Source: Bacilli bacterium
GTDB taxonomy: Bacteria; Bacillota_I; Bacilli_A; RFN20; CAG-826
Reading direction: 5' to 3'
Length of the DNA stretch: 35,584 bases
Assembly: GCA_024698065.1 (NCBI GenBank)
Contig: JAILRR010000064.1
Location: 1-35,584 of the forward strand
Part shown: piece after piece, positions 17,923 to 35,571 of the stretch
How the letters are laid out: each line of letters begins with the position of its first letter
Numbering within the stretch: the stretch's first letter is position 1
Notes under the pieces: model-generated
What the model was told of the DNA's origin: nothing
The model's input: only the letters and a program-made list of their open reading frames with translations
The model's database searches: none
Made by a program: the position numbers and the translations under genes

Positions 17923-17960
17923 TACTTTCATTGCTTCGGTATTTTCATTAAAATAAACTC

Positions 17961-18356
17961 ATGAGCGATTTCTACTATCTCAACAATTACCAGCAAGCTG
18001 GGAAGATGGGTATCTCGAGAAAAGCCTTCGAGAATATCGTCACCATCGCGAGTAACAATCTCCAGAATGTCAAAATCAACAACTATGGAGAGACTCTTAC
18101 CCGTCTTGGCAACATCATCTCCGCTGTCCGCCCGGTCAAAGCTTTCTTCAAGAAAGACGGCCGAGTTGATTTGATGCTCGATGTTGTGGTGGGTGGAAAC
18201 GTGACCGCGATTGCCGATCTTTGCACGAGAATCCAGGAAGAGGTTTCCAACAGCATTTCAATGATGTGTGAGACTGTTCCTGTTTCCGTGGAAATCAGGG
18301 TCTCTAAGGAAAAACCTGCAAAGAAGCCTTCAGATAAAAAGGCTAAAAAGGCTTAA
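17961..18356 (+). CDS. Asp23/Gls24 family protein (YqhY-like)
   Basis: G.MGIS..A...IV.IA and IQEEVSNSISMM patterns; directly upstream of nusB as in Bacilli. Leaderless promoter TTTCAT-17-TAAAAT-6-ATG. Confidence 0.8.
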   Translation: MSDFYYLNNYQQAGKMGISRKAFENIVTIASNNLQNVKINNYGETLTRLGNIISAVRPVKAFFKKDGRVDLMLDVVVGGNVTAIADLCTRIQEEVSNSISMMCETVPVSVEIRVSKEKPAKKPSDKKAKKA

Positions 18357-18386
18357 TAGCCGCAAAAGATTACTTTAGTAATGTCT

Positions 18387-18419
18387 GGTGCCATCTAAAA
18401 AAGGTGGCACCTTTTGTTT
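18387..18419 (+). terminator. Intrinsic terminator
   Basis: GGTGCCATCT-AAAAA-AGGTGGCACC followed by TTTTGTTT. Confidence 0.8.
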
Positions 18420-24291: not shown

Positions 24292-24344
24292 TAAATATGA
24301 ACGAACATTCATATTAAATAATTAATCATGGATGTATTGGTGAA

Positions 24345-24371
24345 GGGGCAAATGTTGCCTTGGTTCTTTTT
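24345..24371 (+). terminator. Possible weak terminator after xerD
   Basis: GGGGCAA-ATG-TTGCCTT then GGTTCTTTTT. Confidence 0.35.
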
Positions 24372-24592
24372 GGAATGTGGATAGAAAGCTATGAGCAGTC
24401 CCGCCATGTTGCGTAAGAGAGAGTCCGATAAAATCATCATCGTTATTAAACAAATATATGAATGGCAAACACGTTAACATCGTAAACTATGGAGAAAACA
24501 GTCTTTACAAAAGCCTTTGTGTTTTCGTCAATAAAAAAATAGATTAAGGAAAAGTGCTTTTTTGACCGAATTTTCAGGCGTTGGAATTGTAA

Positions 24593-24663
24593 TCAAAAAT
24601 AGGCAAAGAGATTAGTAATTTTAACAAAATTCAAAAAGTAGGCAATTAGTAGTTTTGATAATT
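24593..24663. repeat. Imperfect ~38-bp tandem duplication near dif
   Basis: TCAAAAA-TAGGCAAAGAGATTAGTAATTTTAACAA versus TCAAAAAGTAGGCA-----ATTAGTAGTTTTGATAA. Confidence 0.55.
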
Positions 24664-24757
24664 ATGTTAATAACTTGGAAAATGCGTTGATTACTAACAA
24701 TATAATTCATAAATAACATTATTATAAAGCCATAAAAACGCTATTAATATTCTATTT

Positions 24758-24785
24758 AGTTAACATAAAGGCTATTATGCGAAGT
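24758..24785 (-). other. dif site (chromosome dimer resolution; replication terminus)
   Basis: Minus strand ACTTCGCATAA-TAGCCT-TTATGTTAACT has the 11-6-11 layout of E. coli (GGTGCGCATAA...TTATGTTAAAT) and B. subtilis (ACTTCCTAGAA...TTATGTAAACT) dif. It lies where gene orientation flips. Confidence 0.92.
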
Positions 24786-24971
24786 AATAGTATTTTCTCG
24801 GAGTAGCAGCTGTTTTAGTAGTAGCTGCTTGTAAGAAATGTAAAGCGTTTTTCCCAAATTTTTGACCTTTGTTTTTACTTCTTCCACCGCTCAATTTTTT
24901 GGCAAATAGGCCCTTACTATTTTTAAATTGTAATAGTGTCAATGAAAACGAAATATATGCTTATTTTTATT

Positions 24972-25001
24972 AAAGAAAAACCGGCGGTTTTAACCCGTCG
25001 G
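24972..25001 (-). terminator. Intrinsic terminator after rsfS
   Basis: Minus strand CCGACGG-GTTAAAA-CCGCCGG (one mismatch) followed by TTTTTCTTT. Confidence 0.7.
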
Positions 25002-25025
25002 CTACCTGCTTTTGGAGGATTCGAT

Positions 25026-25349
25026 CTAGCGTCTATTGAACAAGTCTTCTAGATTCATCTCTTGCCGCTTTGGAGCTGAGAAGATGTGGACAACAACCTC
25101 CCCTGCATCTACCAAAACCCATCCTGATTCTGGTTGGCCTTCGCTCTGCCTTAGATCTTCTGATTTGTTTTGGAAGAACTCCTCAAGAGCGTCTGCGTAT
25201 GCGCCAATTGCTCTCATGTTTGGGGCAGTAACCAATATGTAATAATCGGTGAAAGGCGTCCTATCCCTAACATCAATGATTGTTATGTCTTCACCCTTTT
25301 TGTCTTCGAGTAAGTCTTTTGTTTCTTTGATAAGTTTTGGATAAGCCAT
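25026..25349 (-). CDS. rsfS: Ribosome silencing factor RsfS (Iojap)
   Basis: DKKGEDI.IIDV, WVLVDAGEVVVHIF, NLEDLF. Confidence 0.95.
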   Translation of the reverse strand: MAYPKLIKETKDLLEDKKGEDITIIDVRDRTPFTDYYILVTAPNMRAIGAYADALEEFFQNKSEDLRQSEGQPESGWVLVDAGEVVVHIFSAPKRQEMNLEDLFNRR

Positions 25350-31111: not shown

Positions 31112-33043
31112 TTAGTTCTTCACTTCTTTAATAAACTCGTCTTCTTCGTTGAAGGTGATGTTCTCTTGAATCCAGTTCCAACGTGGAGCGCTGTCTTTGC
31201 CCATGAGGGTTTCGATTCGCTTCTCGGTAACGAGGGAATCATCAATCATAACTCTGCAAAGAACACGAGATTCTTTGTTCATTGTGGTCATGGCTAATTC
31301 ATCTTCGTTCATTTCACCAAGACCTTTGTAACGATTGACACCATAACCGGCACCAATCTTCTGTTTGGCTTTTTCTAATTCTTCATCGTTCCAACAATAG
31401 ATGCGTTTCTTTGGATCGCTCTTTTTGAAGACGCGGTAAAGAGGAGGCTGGGCGATGTAAACCATTCCACGATCTATAAGCGGCTTCATGTAATTGTAGA
31501 AGAAGGTCAGCAAAAGGATCTGGATGTGGGCACCATCGGTATCAGCATCGGTCATAATGATGATCTTGCCATAATGGCTCGCATCTGGATTGAATTCATC
31601 CCCGAAACCGGCACCAATTGTCTGGATAAGGGTTGAGAATTCTAGGTTATCGATTATTTCTTGGTTTGATACGTTGTGCGTATTGAGTGGTTTTCCTCTA
31701 AGAGGAAGGATGGCCTGATGACTCCTATCGCGTCCTTTTTTGGCGGAGCCGCCTGCGGAATCACCCTCAACGATGAAGAGCTCGTTGTTCTTGTAATCTT
31801 TGCTTTGGGCGCTGGCTAATTTGTCGCTGATAATCATCTCAGCAACTTTCTTTTTGGTGCCTCTTGCTGCTTCACGAGCTTTTCTAGCGGCTTCACGTGC
31901 TTCTTTTGCCTGAGCGCACTTCTTAATAAGGGCAACGGCAAAATCTTTATTCTCAGTGAGATAATACGGCATGAAGTTCGATAAGGCGTTGCTTACCACT
32001 GCCGTAGCCTCAGGTGTTCCTAGTTTGCCTTTGGTCTGGCCTTCGTATTCGAGTTTGTTCTCAGGAACTTTGACGGAAAGAACGGCGGTTAAGCCTTCGC
32101 GAATATCGCTTCCGTCAATGGACTGATTTGGTTTAATGAGTTCGTTTTCGGTTGCCCAATCATTGATGATTTTGGTCAAAGCGCCTTTAAAACCGGTTTC
32201 ATGGGTACCACCATCGGCGGTTCTTACGTCGTTAGCATAGCTATAGATGTTCTCACCATAGTCGCCAACACACCATCTCATGGCGATTTCAACCTGAATT
32301 GGATTCGAAGTGTCGTTCAAATCGATGATGTCCGCCATAGGCGTTTTGTCCATGGTCAGGGTTTGGACGTATTCGCGTAAACCATGTTCGGTATAGTAAT
32401 CGTGAGTGTTTCCGCTGATCTGGTCTTTAATAACGAAATGAACACCGGTGAGGAGATAACTCTTTTCCTCAAGTCTCGATGAAATCGTTTCGTAACTGAA
32501 TTTTGTGTTAGGAAAGATTGATGGATCTGGTTTGAAATGAACAGTAGTTCCGTGCTTCGTGGTTGGGCCGAGAACTTCTAATGGAGTCGTCAAATGACCA
32601 CCGTTTGCAAAAGCGATGTGATGGATCTTTCCTTCACGGTAGACGGTAACTTCCAAATATTCGCTTAACGCGTTTGTGACTGTAGCGCCAACGCCGTGAA
32701 GACCGGCGCTTGTTTTATAGTTCTTGCTATTGAACTTACCACCGCTATGGAGGGTCGTGTAAATGAGCTGAACGGCTGGAATGCCGGATTGCTTGTGGAT
32801 GTCTACAGGAACACCACGTCCTTCATCTTCGACGGTAAGAGAACCATCCCTCATCAAGGTGACGGTGATCTTCTTACCAAAACCGTTGACCGCCTCGTCA
32901 ACAGCGTTATCTACTATTTCCCACACAAGGTGGTGTAAACCGTTCAAGTTCGTGGAGCCGATATACATGCCAGGGCGTTTTCTGACACCTTCAAGTTCCG
33001 ATAATAATTCAATGTCGTTAGCTGTGTATTTCTCGTCGGCCAT
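31112..33043 (-). CDS. parE: DNA topoisomerase IV subunit B
   Basis: [52 protein letters not shown]; divergent from plsY as in Bacilli. Confidence 0.94.
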
Positions 33044-33161: not shown

Positions 33162-33890
33162 GTGGACATTTTACTGAACATCGCCGTTGCCCTTGGCTGT
33201 ATAATTTGGGGCTTTTTGATCGGTAGCATTCCTACTGGTGTTATTGTTGGAAAAGTTTTCTTCGGAAAAGATCCTCGTGACTATGGTTCTCATAACTCCG
33301 GCGGAACTAATTCAGGCCGTGTTTTAGGTAAAAAGGTCGGTATCCTCGTAATGGTTTTAGACATTGCAAAGACCGTCTTCGCTTTCTGGATGGCTTGGAT
33401 TTTCCTTCGCTTCGGACCTGTTGATCGTTCGATTCTCTTCGACGACGGCGTTTTGTACAACTATCTTGTTTGCGCTGCTGCTGCCTTTGGCCACTGCTTC
33501 TCGCCTTTCCTCAAATTCAAAGGCGGCAAAGCCGTTGCCTGCTTCATGGCTATCTTTGGTGGGTCAAGCTGGCTTGGATTCATCATTTCTCTCGCCGTCT
33601 TCTTCACCATATTCCTTGTCGTCTTCAAGAAAGTCATGTCCAAAGCGTCTTTGCTTTCTGGCGCCGTTCTTATTCTTATCAGTGGAATCTTCTGTTTGCT
33701 TAGGTTAATCCCAGGGGCCGACGGCGTCCTCAACATCTTCTTGTGGGACTTCGGTCTTGTTGGAGGTGTTTGCTTCGGTTGGGAAATGATAGCCGTTGAA
33801 GTCGTTGTTTATATCCTTCTTGTTATCAGACATGCATCAAACATCCAACGCATCAGGCAAGGCGAAGAAAAGCCTCTTGAATGGAAGTAA
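33162..33890 (+). CDS. plsY: Glycerol-3-phosphate acyltransferase PlsY
   Basis: GSIP.G, GSHNSGGTNSGR, DIAK, GHCFS.F..FKGGKAVA, RHASNIQRI..GEE. Confidence 0.96.
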   Translation: MDILLNIAVALGCIIWGFLIGSIPTGVIVGKVFFGKDPRDYGSHNSGGTNSGRVLGKKVGILVMVLDIAKTVFAFWMAWIFLRFGPVDRSILFDDGVLYNYLVCAAAAFGHCFSPFLKFKGGKAVACFMAIFGGSSWLGFIISLAVFFTIFLVVFKKVMSKASLLSGAVLILISGIFCLLRLIPGADGVLNIFLWDFGLVGGVCFGWEMIAVEVVVYILLVIRHASNIQRIRQGEEKPLEWK

Positions 33891-33922
33891 TTAATTAGTA
33901 GATATTTAGTTCATTGCATATT

Positions 33923-33957
33923 AAAATGTGCGACAACCAATGCCGCACATTTTTTTT
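33923..33957. terminator. Probably bidirectional terminator between plsY and the convergent gene
   Basis: AAAATGTGCG-11 nt-CGCACATTTT with extended T tract. Confidence 0.8.
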
Positions 33958-33967
33958 CGATTAATAC

Positions 33968-34426
33968 TTACTTATGGAGATTGACCTTCGCGTCTTTTGA
34001 AGCGATAGACTCAACAATACCGTCTAAGAGCAATGATTCCTTTTTTGAGAACACTTGGGCAACGAAAGAGAACTCATTCCTACCGTGTTTTTTATAGACG
34101 AAGCTGATCTTTCCCTTCTTCTCATACTTAAACTCGAGAAGGTCGTCTACGCTGATCGTTATGCGCTCCTTTTTATCTTCGTCATAGAATGTGATTTTAT
34201 CTTTGCTGATATTGAGCCCGTGTCCTTTCCAATAAGAAAGGCAATCTCCGAAAAAGACTATTAAATAATATAGCTCACCTAGAGTAGCTATTACGACATA
34301 GCCCCAAAGAATCGGGGTGCTCGTCAGAAGATCGAGCAAAAACAAGACCACCATACTTGCCGTATATAGAGCAGTCACAATGTAGAAAGAATATGATTGA
34401 GAGGTTCTCCAAGGATTGTATTTCAT
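33968..34426 (-). CDS. Hypothetical membrane protein (2 N-terminal TMs plus small soluble domain), leaderless
   Basis: 152-aa ORF; TGGTATAAT lies 6 nt before ATG; two hydrophobic helices. Confidence 0.75.
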   Translation of the reverse strand: MKYNPWRTSQSYSFYIVTALYTASMVVLFLLDLLTSTPILWGYVVIATLGELYYLIVFFGDCLSYWKGHGLNISKDKITFYDEDKKERITISVDDLLEFKYEKKGKISFVYKKHGRNEFSFVAQVFSKKESLLLDGIVESIASKDAKVNLHK

Positions 34427-34440
34427 GCGGAAATTATACC

Positions 34441-34704
34441 AAGAAGACCAGAGCCACGCACCTCTTCCCTCTTATTTCGACATCTCAGGGCACATCCCTT
34501 TGAAAAGTACGCACGATAACAAGACGGGAAGAGGCTTTATGGCGTAATCAAGCCTAAGAACTAGGAGGTTTCTTCGGCTCAACCGCTTGCAAGCGGATAC
34601 TGACAATAGTGATTGGCTATTGCAGGGAATATTCATCAAGTTGCTTTGTCACCATTTAAATGGCGATACTCGGCCGAGAAAAGCTAACTCGAATCCCCCT
34701 CCAT
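34441..34704 (-). ncRNA. Candidate ~260-nt structured non-coding RNA of unknown family
   Basis: Five contiguous stem domains with G-U pairs favouring the minus strand and no long ORF. Preceded by the yneF terminator and a weak promoter-like TTGCGA-16-CACTAT. Confidence 0.65.
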
Positions 34705-34737
34705 TATCTATATAGTGAGGAAAAAAGAATTTTTCGC

Positions 34738-34775
34738 AAAAAAAAGAAAAGAGCCACATTTTTGTGTGACTCTTT
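34738..34775 (-). terminator. Intrinsic terminator after efp-yneF
   Basis: Minus strand AAAGAGTCACA-CAAAAA-TGTGGCTCTTT followed by TCTTTTTTTT. Confidence 0.85.
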
Positions 34776-34786
34776 AAGATAAATCC

Positions 34787-35008
34787 TTATCTGTTTTTGT
34801 TCATTGAGTGCATGATGCTGCGAACTTGCTTTTCGCTTGGTTTGCGGCCCATTTGCTCATACATCGTGCGAATTTGTTTTTCGGTGATTGGAGGATTCTT
34901 CTCCATTTGCTTTTGAATAAGGTAACGAGCAAGGAAGAAACCGATGACACCACCGACGATGAGAACGCCAATTAAAGAAAGGACAAAAACCCAAACTTCA
35001 ATTTGCAT
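34787..35008 (-). CDS. yneF: YneF/UPF0154 family small membrane protein
   Basis: TM followed by GFFLAR...KNPPITEKQIR.M..QMGRKPSEK. Confidence 0.93.
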   Translation of the reverse strand: MQIEVWVFVLSLIGVLIVGGVIGFFLARYLIQKQMEKNPPITEKQIRTMYEQMGRKPSEKQVRSIMHSMNKNR

Positions 35009-35013
35009 CGATA

Positions 35014-35571
35014 TTAGGCTCTCTTATCGTATTTGCCGGTAACGGTATCAACCATGACCTTTTCGCCCTTCTCGATGAAGAGAGGGACTCTGATCTTAAG
35101 ACCGGTTTCGAGGACGGCATCTTTAGAACCACCATTGGTGACGGTGTCGCCTCTGACGCCTGGCTCACATTCAGTGATCTCAAGAGCGACTTTGGCTGGA
35201 AGTTCGATACCAAGGATTTCTTCTTCGTAAGCGTTGATGGTAACGAAGCCGTTTGGAGCAAGGAAGCCCATTTCGCGTTCAAGACCATTCTTAGGAAGCT
35301 CAACCTGTTCATAGGTATCTGGATCCATAAAGACTAAGGTGGTTCCGCCGTCGTAGAGGTACTGCATCTGCTTCTTGTCGACGCTGACGAGGGTGACATC
35401 GTAACCGGAGTTACGGGCAAGCTCGGTGATAGCACCGGTGCGGACATTTCTAACTTTGACTTTAGCAACCATCTTTCTCATAGCGGTTTTGTTGAGAAGG
35501 ATGTCGATAACTTGATAAAGGGTGTTTTCATCTTCGAAGTAGTTGCCAGGGCGTAATTCTGTAACGTTCAT
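35014..35571 (-). CDS. efp: Translation elongation factor P (non-canonical loop)
   Basis: ELRPG, KNVRTG-like segment (RNVRTG), MQYLY, FMDP.TYEQ, PGVRGDT, K.AVLETG, VPLFI..GE; SD AGGAG. Confidence 0.95.
   Translation of the reverse strand: MNVTELRPGNYFEDENTLYQVIDILLNKTAMRKMVAKVKVRNVRTGAITELARNSGYDVTLVSVDKKQMQYLYDGGTTLVFMDPDTYEQVELPKNGLEREMGFLAPNGFVTINAYEEEILGIELPAKVALEITECEPGVRGDTVTNGGSKDAVLETGLKIRVPLFIEKGEKVMVDTVTGKYDKRA

Follow-up and report, generated by a model that had tools for sequence, protein, structure and literature searches.

The OLE RNA is described as a large and ornate noncoding RNA (ncRNA) of Gram-positive bacteria, which is located at membranes and acts together with a membrane protein (PMC12265935, PMC7936274, PMC12286853); it is about 600 nucleotides (nt) long (PMC9723947) and forms a symmetric dimer (PMC12286853). 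In the last of these sources, the Rumen-Originating, Ornate, Large RNA (ROOL) and GOLLD are reported to self-assemble via kissing loops and raiA to be a monomer (PMC12286853). Here we describe an RNA element of about 264 nt on the minus strand of a 35,584-nt stretch of DNA, called the window in the following, from Bacilli bacterium (GTDB lineage Bacteria; Bacillota_I; Bacilli_A; RFN20; CAG-826; assembly GCA_024698065.1, contig JAILRR010000064.1). The window is one contig (C60) of a metagenome-assembled genome (MAG; G000 below) of 1.06 Mb that is 81% complete. The element, at window positions 34441 to 34704, is almost certainly a real, selected and structured RNA outside all catalogued families. 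It represents a new family within a known general kind, the orphan structured bacterial ncRNAs, and has a narrow host range in uncultured organisms.

When the interval 34704-34441 was folded with ViennaRNA, the minus strand reached a minimum free energy (MFE) of -94.4 kcal/mol and beat all dinucleotide shuffles (-73.8 +/- 5.4 kcal/mol; z -3.83; 0 of 200 as good), a comparison that the initial annotation of this DNA had proposed; the plus strand reached -74.7 kcal/mol (z -2.36; 4 of 200 shuffles as good). The same annotation had drawn five stem domains, D1 to D5, along the minus strand, all of which are recovered in the minus-strand MFE structure, and had read the G-U pairs as a sign that selection acts on the minus-strand RNA: several minus-strand G-U pairs are indeed invariant among relatives, for example at alignment columns 4-388, 10-115 and 262-372. 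The long rod proposed for D5 is reproduced from 34543 to 34453, but its outermost pairing, GAUUA/UGGUC, competes with a closing helix, P1, that had been overlooked, and the G002 and G012 types retain only about three of these five outermost pairs (by eye). P1 is formed by GGAGG at 34702-34698 and CUUCU at 34446-34442 and joins the 5' and 3' ends of the RNA. In relatives, 100% of the cells of its five pairs are paired and two pairs are changed on both sides; equivalents are AGGGGC/GCCCUU in the diverged relative G017 and, possible by eye, UGAGGA/UUCUCA in the diverged relative G015. The parts of the RNA are as follows (pair counts are from the alignment of relatives described below, with pairs changed on both sides given as double-changed):

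34441..34704, minus strand: structured RNA, P1 plus D1-D5, about 264 nt (fold, z-score, matches to covariance model R1, pair counts, composition)
34698..34702, minus strand: 5' strand of P1, GGAGG, pairing with 34446-34442 (in the MFE structure)
34442..34446, minus strand: 3' strand of P1, CUUCU, 3 nt before the TATAAT of an open reading frame (ORF) of 152 amino acids
34626..34697, minus strand: D1, a three-segment stem with two hairpins (helices 2-5: 26 pairs, 14 double-changed, 95-100% of cells paired)
34669..34678, minus strand: hairpin D1a, a 10-nt palindrome, CUCGGCCGAG (CUC-GGCC-GAG, a 3-bp stem with a GGCC loop)
34666-34649, minus strand: hairpin D1b, the second inner hairpin of D1, UCGCCAU-UUAA-AUGGUGA (MFE)
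34600..34625, minus strand: hairpin D2, loop CCAAUCA (MFE), 40-50 nt longer in G017 and G015
34583..34596, minus strand: D3, a 14-nt palindrome, CCGCU-UGCA-AGCGG (MFE)
34548..34582, minus strand: hairpin D4 with loop ACCUCCUAG at 34569-34561 (MFE; helices 8-9)
34453..34543, minus strand: D5, a rod of about 90 nt with tip GGG-N5-CCC (helices 10-12: 35 pairs, 16 double-changed, 99-100% paired)

The 5' strand of D5 is pyrimidine-rich and the opposing 3' strand purine-rich (GGGAAGAGGU). The loop of D4 is invariant among nine close relatives only: G017 has a CCUUCUUCU-type loop and in G015 the loop is unrecognisable. Within the loop is CCUCC, which is complementary to GGAGG at the RNA 5' end (34702-34698), and the loop may resemble the anti-Shine-Dalgarno core of 16S ribosomal RNA. 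A conserved pseudoknot between these two segments was considered; they are complementary in close relatives, and we do not claim the pseudoknot because it was not found in G015.

The initial annotation had also suggested looking for covariation in related genomes. We aligned 13 distinct sequences by fitting them to the model. Standard pairs fill 98.0% of the 993 pair cells, and 37 of the 89 pairs are changed on both sides, compared with 7.6 +/- 2.0 in 500 shuffles (none of which reaches 37) and 2-9 when the partners are slid by 1-3 columns. Four close sequences (84-86% identical) already show eight pairs with changes on both sides. The RNA occurs in three diverged types of 264, 311 (G017) and about 350 nt (G015) with like order of domains; each folds alone into P1 or an equivalent, a branched D1, D2, D3, D4 and a long D5 rod, and the length differences among the types are limited to hairpin tips.

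Sequence conservation was compared between G000 and four relatives (G012, G076, G002 and G007): nucleotide identity is 87-88% for the RNA, 70-72% for the adjacent 152-aa ORF (48-50% at third codon positions), 81-83% for yneF (62-70%) and 91-93% for efp (77-80%), the two genes preceding the RNA. On this comparison, the RNA is under strong purifying selection. No conserved reading frame was found in it: stops occur in every frame of every type, and the best translated match across types has an E value of 0.05. Covariation together with purifying selection shows, at the level of sequence comparison, that the folded RNA itself is the selected product. The element also stands out in composition, with a GC content of 0.47 and flanking spacers of 0.28-0.29.

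Searches for known RNA families used the 4227 covariance models of Rfam 15 at gathering thresholds. The whole window gave no match; when 34300-34850 was searched at E<=10, only four chance-level matches appeared, none of them on the body of the RNA, and 20 related loci, including two diverged homologues (L017 and L025), gave no match at all. The statement of the initial annotation that no family can be recognised thus stands, and so does its failure to see hallmarks of RNase P, signal recognition particle (SRP), transfer-messenger (tmRNA), 6S or common riboswitch RNAs, none of which has an Rfam match over the RNA. The scans of the window and the region were also without a match to the OLE model. 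Elsewhere in the genome, RNase P RNA (RF00011) is matched on C29 with 224.8 bits and on C3 with 178.4 bits, and the small SRP RNA (RF00169 and RF01854 were tested) on contig C27 with 60.7 bits. Two RNase P RNA matches above cut-off in one genome (C29:774-1090 and C3:3-273, the latter at a contig end) could be caused by strain mixture, MAG contamination or gene duplication. In the literature we found no relevant paper that links yneF to a noncoding RNA; the supplementary motif lists of RNA-discovery papers could contain the motif.

BLAST searches of 61 genomes identified full-length copies of the RNA with 84-86% identity in three other genomes, and one further match of 29 nt at chance level. 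The covariance model R1 was built from four sequences with 84-86% identity and detects the RNA in 8 of 78 genomes of the genus, including the 311-nt version of G017 (43 bits) and a copy in G067 that is cut by the contig end. The 152-aa ORF is found in 8 of the 78 genomes too, the same set except G067 and G015. The contig of G067 ends inside the RNA and the ORF is therefore unobservable there; G015 has at the same place an intergenic sequence of about 350 nt with the same promoter-like boxes, which folds well (z -3.72) and of which R1 recognises only the D5 rod. In total, 9 of 78 genus genomes carry the RNA, in addition to a few metagenome contigs, always in single copy per genome.

Among 185,579 species representatives the ORF is present at seven loci besides the window's own genome, and JGI metagenomes provided five further contigs with the ORF, one of them a duplicate; locus L033 was excluded from the R1 search of related loci, being the same 34,841-nt contig as L026 under another accession. 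The closest relatives are MAGs from rumen, reticulum and horse faeces, labelled 'Bacilli' or 'Erysipelotrichaceae'. When a phylogenetic tree was constructed from efp and yneF of 32 genus genomes (FastTree, midpoint-rooted, read for topology only), the 8 carriers included formed one clade. The block of RNA and ORF is, judging by this tree and the searches, a clade-specific feature of one monophyletic subclade, in line with the possible lineage specificity named in the initial annotation; with all carriers in one subclade, the sequences are therefore kin and not independent samples.

Searches further afield found little. Among 151 genomes sampled from the order, R1 matched only two (G000 and G076), and it missed G015, a known carrier, so that the model is too narrow to exclude distant relatives. 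The 14-mer of D3, used as a probe, occurs in 3 of 401 genomes of the class: G000, G076 and one unrelated genome, which was rejected as a carrier of a homologue since only a 16-nt hairpin matches R1, at chance level (8.1 bits). Genus members that are not carriers have an AT-rich spacer of 80-920 nt between yneF and plsY. No relics were detected in them, neither by R1 at E<=10 in 24 yneF loci nor, beyond chance, by tblastn or blastn, and the spacers of ten non-carrier genomes fold ordinarily (z -1.98 to +1.17, versus -4.36 for G000). Three non-carriers, G086, G095 and G069 (loci L056, L058 and L066), have in common a conserved stretch, about 60-70 nt long and downstream of yneF, with a hairpin of the type ACUACUAAG...AUUAGUAGU and the ending ...AAAAUUUCCCACUUUUU; these regions fold ordinarily. 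In the spacers of G095 and G086, a G-rich start comes after a TATATA-type box, which is similar to the putative RNA promoter in the window.

On the minus strand of the window, the order is efp, yneF, an intrinsic terminator, the structured RNA, the 152-aa ORF and a hairpin with a T run:

35571-35014, minus strand: efp
35008-34787, minus strand: yneF (UPF0154; Pfam PF03672, E 1e-29)
34738..34775, minus strand: intrinsic terminator of yneF, stem 34775-34748 with a T run after it (11 pairs plus TCTTTTTTTT in the terminator scan)
34705..34739, minus strand: promoter-like element of the RNA, -35-like TTGCGA at 34739-34734, 19-nt spacer, -10-like TATATA at 34714-34709 (conservation)
34433..34438, minus strand: TATAAT, putative -10 box of a leaderless ORF mRNA, 6 nt before the ORF ATG
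33968..34426, minus strand: 152-aa ORF, a conserved protein, co-inherited with the RNA
33923..33950, minus strand: hairpin with T run (ATGTGCG...CGCACAT TTTT) after the ORF and before plsY, read from the sequence and absent from the terminator-scan output
33162-33890, plus strand: plsY (PF02660), convergent with the ORF
31112-33043, minus strand: 643-aa ORF beyond plsY

The strong terminator that had been placed upstream of the RNA is present at 34775-34748 with its T run, and hairpin and T run are kept in 11 of 11 relatives inspected. Directly after it, 11 of 11 sequences have the same -35/-10 layout at a fixed distance from P1 (-35-like variants TTGCGA, TTGTGA, TTCTGA, TTGTTA and TTTCGA; -10-like variants TATATA, TATAAG and TATATG), with the -10-like box about 7 nt before the first base of P1. 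From this conservation we infer that the boxes are the RNA's own promoter; the promoter scan missed them because it accepts spacers of 16-18 nt and the spacer here is 19 nt.

At the other end of the RNA, 13 of 13 sequences have an exact TATAAT 6-7 nt before the start codon of the ORF (ATG, with GTG in two of them), and the bases between box and start vary (TTCCGC, TTCCCC, TTCATTC, TTCATTT, TGTGGGC, AGGACAC). This suggests that the ORF has a leaderless promoter of its own, which the initial annotation had assumed: the box is there in every sequence, and its role as a promoter is putative. The 3' strand of P1 ends 3-10 nt before the TATAAT, so that the RNA gene overlaps the ORF's putative promoter, and 16-23 nt before the start codon. 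Neither a Shine-Dalgarno (SD) sequence before the ORF ATG nor a terminator-like site at 34441-34426 was found. In a crude survey with naive choice of start codons, only about 9 of 24 long ORFs of the window have an SD-like word upstream, and in several genes without SD a -10-like box precedes the ATG by 7-9 nt, among them 10565 (TATAAT plus 9 nt) and 2353 (TATTAT plus 7 nt); gene starts surveyed include 2353, 4529, 10565, 20339 and 31112. This organism may commonly use leaderless or SD-independent initiation. A search of sequencing runs with a 1201-nt stretch gave 16 runs, 7 of them recorded as RNA, with part of the stretch, and no run with half of its words. Four metatranscriptome RNA runs (Logan contigs, sheep gut and bovine, from three studies) have very low depth on 33900-35100 and are uninformative on transcription of the RNA: efp and yneF (34799-35100) are covered at depth 3.5-12 and parts of the ORF (33900-34359) at depth 2-5, and 34392-34760 is uncovered.

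The RNA is always directly upstream of the 152-aa ORF family and never seen elsewhere. The ORF has 17 relatives in 5.8 billion sequences, all with at least 52% identity, and a conserved start, MKYNP. Two transmembrane helices and a PH-like domain are predicted: the AlphaFold2 model (predicted local distance difference test, pLDDT, 76) has helices at residues 9-30 and 39-66, five strands and a C-terminal helix, and its best Foldseek matches are PH/PTB folds with E values of about 1e-3. Its structure neighbours in the Atlas include bPH_2 and YcxB clusters with TM scores of 0.48-0.55, which are leads only. Against Pfam there was nothing above the curated cut-off, and the weak matches (EBP, E 0.012; Raptor_N, E 0.087) do not include bPH_2 or YcxB; NCBIfam and PADLOC gave no match, and these searches gave no hint of a known RNA-binding function. 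In public gene calls the ORF has 164, 171 or 204 amino acids, with extra N-terminal residues that are translated from the 3' part of the RNA and are not conserved. A genuine in-frame extension into the RNA was considered and rejected: G000 has no in-frame start there, and the spacing from TATAAT to ATG varies between 6 and 7 nt, so that the frame of the extension is not kept. The extension appears to be an annotation artefact, and as the public calls extend the ORF into the RNA, the RNA is hidden by mis-annotation.

Two hairpins of the RNA are self-complementary. All 12 sequences that cover D1a have it as a perfect 10-nt palindrome, in four variants, with the loop GGCC in 11 and AGCU in G015. 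D3 is an identical perfect 14-nt palindrome in 11 of 12; the sequence of G015, GGCUGC-CUAGCUA-GCGGCU, has a 7-nt loop that holds the palindrome UAGCUA. In OLE, changes of loop L9.3 from GGCC to GAUC or AGCU are described as evidence for a symmetric intermolecular kissing loop that was confirmed by cryo-electron microscopy, and loop L21a of GOLLD is another case of a loop that switches between palindromes (PMC12286853). D1a shows the same pattern, with one lineage that switches; since adjacent loop bases cannot pair within one chain, a switch from palindrome to palindrome suggests pairing between copies. By nearest-neighbour cofolding, the predicted dimer gain of the three types is -18.9, -16.1 and -15.9 kcal/mol, compared with -11.8 +/- 2.7, -11.2 +/- 2.8 and -11.4 +/- 2.1 kcal/mol for shuffles. 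We regard it as possible, if on balance doubtful, that the RNA dimerises via these hairpins.

Our preferred interpretation is that the element would be a new, clade-specific and highly structured ncRNA gene, about 264 nt long here and 311 and about 350 nt in the two diverged relatives. A sigma-70-type promoter of its own, just after the yneF terminator, would drive its transcription on the minus strand. The RNA would start 1-3 nt before P1 and fold into a closed particle in which P1 ties the ends together and D1-D5 radiate from a compact junction. The 152-aa membrane protein would be made separately, from a leaderless mRNA that starts at the TATAAT overlapping the 3' edge of the RNA. The RNA may pair with a second copy through D1a (loop GGCC/AGCU) and D3 (loop UGCA/UAGCUA) and, as the weakest step, might act together with the co-inherited membrane-anchored PH-like protein. 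A stand-alone RNA is favoured over a leader because of the conserved leaderless-type promoter of the ORF, the lack of an expression platform, the size and tip expansions, the position of P1 at the predicted start and the self-pairing signature; we consider the chances that it is stand-alone to be roughly even. That the ORF product is its partner is unlikely, and it would be a long shot that a self-dimerising RNA scaffold docks on the cytoplasmic PH-like domain, making a miniature membrane ribonucleoprotein, like but unrelated to OLE-OapA, that was invented in one lineage of small-genome gut Bacilli. The initial annotation had proposed a stand-alone, possibly lineage-specific ncRNA: the conserved minus-strand structured RNA of no known family holds, and its stand-alone nature is putative, given that no terminator precedes the ORF and that the RNA is found only upstream of one ORF family.

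Several points weigh against this interpretation. Most of the changes on both sides of a pair stem from one diverged sequence, G017, and the alignment was fitted to the structure by the model itself, so that the pair counts are biased; the fold of G017 by itself is not better than that of shuffled sequences (z -1.44; 15 of 100). RNAalifold on a MAFFT alignment recovers D1b, D3, D4 and the inner part of D5 (72 pairs, 16 of them double-changed) and pairs the 5' strand of D1 with the purine-rich 3' strand of D5 instead. The z-scores of the dimer gain are only about -1.7 to -2.7, and kissing between stem-closed loops of four bases is geometrically tight. The palindrome switch is confined to one lineage (G015) and was noticed post hoc; the self-pairing signature is therefore a lead. 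As the carriers form one clade, the co-occurrence of RNA and ORF may reflect a single inheritance and does not independently support a partnership. Both promoters, that of the RNA and that of the ORF, are putative, and the 19-nt spacer of the former exceeds the scan's range of 16-18 nt. The terminator scan found no terminator or other 3'-end signal between RNA and ORF, so that transcription from upstream should enter the ORF, as it would in a leader, and P1 keeps a constant, short distance to the start codon (16-23 nt), as would be expected of a cis element.

These last points lead to the strongest of the rival explanations: a cis-acting 5' leader of the 152-aa gene, for instance a riboswitch-like sensor or a leader that responds to a protein or to temperature, that would make up the first 264 nt of the mRNA and control translation, stability or read-through as P1 forms or opens. 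This possibility is kept alive by the strict adjacency of RNA and ORF, on the same strand and in front of this one ORF family only, together with the missing terminator. SD-less starts seem to be frequent in this organism, so an internal SD-less AUG could be usable, and the RNA is more conserved than the gene that follows, as is usual for aptamers. A multi-helix junction closed by P1 is also the usual layout of an aptamer. However, no expression platform was found, with neither a terminator or antiterminator nor an SD sequence to sequester, and no known riboswitch model matches. The exact TATAAT in 13 of 13 sequences with variable bases after it points to an mRNA that begins with the AUG and leaves the RNA out, and a size of 264 to about 350 nt with hairpin-tip expansions of 40-90 nt is unusual for the leader of a single gene. 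We consider a leader a serious contender that is nevertheless probably not the answer.

Transcriptional interference is an improbable second alternative. Transcription from upstream would cross the overlapping promoter of the ORF, and the structure would serve mainly to stabilise or pause the transcript; the 3' strands of P1 and D5 sit where the -35 region and spacer of the putative ORF promoter would be, with no terminator to separate the two units. Interference needs no elaborate fold, however, and leaves unexplained the compensatory changes across 12 helices, the conservation above that of neighbouring genes and the preserved palindromes. Still less probable, to a degree that we would be surprised to see it borne out, is a DNA-level or selfish element, that is, protein-binding palindromes or the remnant of a mobile insertion that is carried along with the ORF and has no RNA function. 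There are two perfect DNA palindromes of 10 and 14 bp, and only one subclade has the block of RNA and ORF, at a place taken by the AT-rich spacer in the rest of the genus; but the invariant G-U pairs and the asymmetry of 20 kcal/mol between the strands indicate RNA, and compensatory changes extend throughout the element, beyond the palindromes. An origin from a mobile element was rejected too: IMG/VR holds no relative of the ORF, the phage and plasmid collections have no match to the RNA, PADLOC has no family for the ORF, and each genome has a single copy.

Hardly credible at all is a very diverged housekeeping RNA, 6S or tmRNA, that the models missed: the 81%-complete genome has no tmRNA (RF00023) above cut-off and neither region nor genome has a 6S match (RF00013), but 6S was above cut-off in none of 53 genus genomes, carriers or not, so that its absence does not track the RNA and replacement of 6S by the RNA is rejected; moreover, the RNA is a P1-closed five-domain junction, unlike the single rod with central bubble of 6S, ARAGORN found no tRNA or tmRNA in the window, and only 9 of 78 genus genomes carry the RNA, unlike a housekeeping RNA. 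6S and tmRNA are in this genus either strongly diverged or missing from the assemblies.

Elsewhere in the window, the 643-aa ORF at 31112-33043 looks, by eye, like the B subunit of a type II topoisomerase (parE/gyrB-like). Three stretches, 880-2352, 17923-18403 and 24292-25348 (1473, 481 and 1057 nt; GC 0.47, 0.43 and 0.35), have no ORF of at least 150 amino acids, no Rfam match and, by ARAGORN, no tRNA; they may carry shorter genes or other RNAs.

Bacterial RNA classes of such size and complexity, here six helical elements and 264 to about 350 nt, are rarely found anew and often have sophisticated functions. The RNA evolves more slowly than its protein-coding neighbours, yet it is limited to a handful of uncultured rumen and gut species and shows that elaborate RNAs can arise and become fixed within a single genus. 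If the palindrome switch reflects real RNA-RNA pairing, the habit of forming symmetric homo-oligomers, only lately discovered in natural RNAs, would extend to a much smaller RNA that is easy to handle in vitro; if the RNA is a leader, a membrane protein family of unknown role would have an unusually large sensor. In practical terms, public ORF calls that reach into the RNA conceal it.

The gene oapA adjoins the ole gene, and OLE with OapA is the closest functional analogy to the locus described here, as an analogy only, since the OLE feature open to comparison, its covariance model, has no match here; at our locus, adjacency to and co-inheritance with a different two-transmembrane protein are seen. 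The RNAs are alike in the switch of the D1a loop from GGCC to AGCU, as in the OLE loop palindromes GGCC, GAUC and AGCU (PMC12286853), and differ in size, with 264 to about 350 nt here and about 600 nt given for OLE (PMC9723947), and in the lack of a match to the OLE model. The neighbour here is a two-transmembrane PH-like protein without detectable family and not OapA, and the RNA has a range of a single subclade within one genus, whereas OLE occurs in many Bacillota. With riboswitch leaders the RNA shares the upstream position on the same strand as a single gene, the junction closed by P1 and a conservation above that of the gene; it differs in having no terminator, antiterminator or SD-sequestering platform and no riboswitch model match, in the gene apparently having its own leaderless promoter, and in being tied to one narrow gene family. 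Like ROOL, GOLLD and raiA, described as complex RNAs of unknown biochemical function that came from comparative genomics, partly of rumen samples (PMC12286853), it is structurally complex and known from sequence comparison, partly of rumen bacteria. Unlike them it has no Rfam match and no link to phages or plasmids, and its chromosomal position is fixed between yneF and plsY. ROOL and GOLLD are also larger than the RNA described here.

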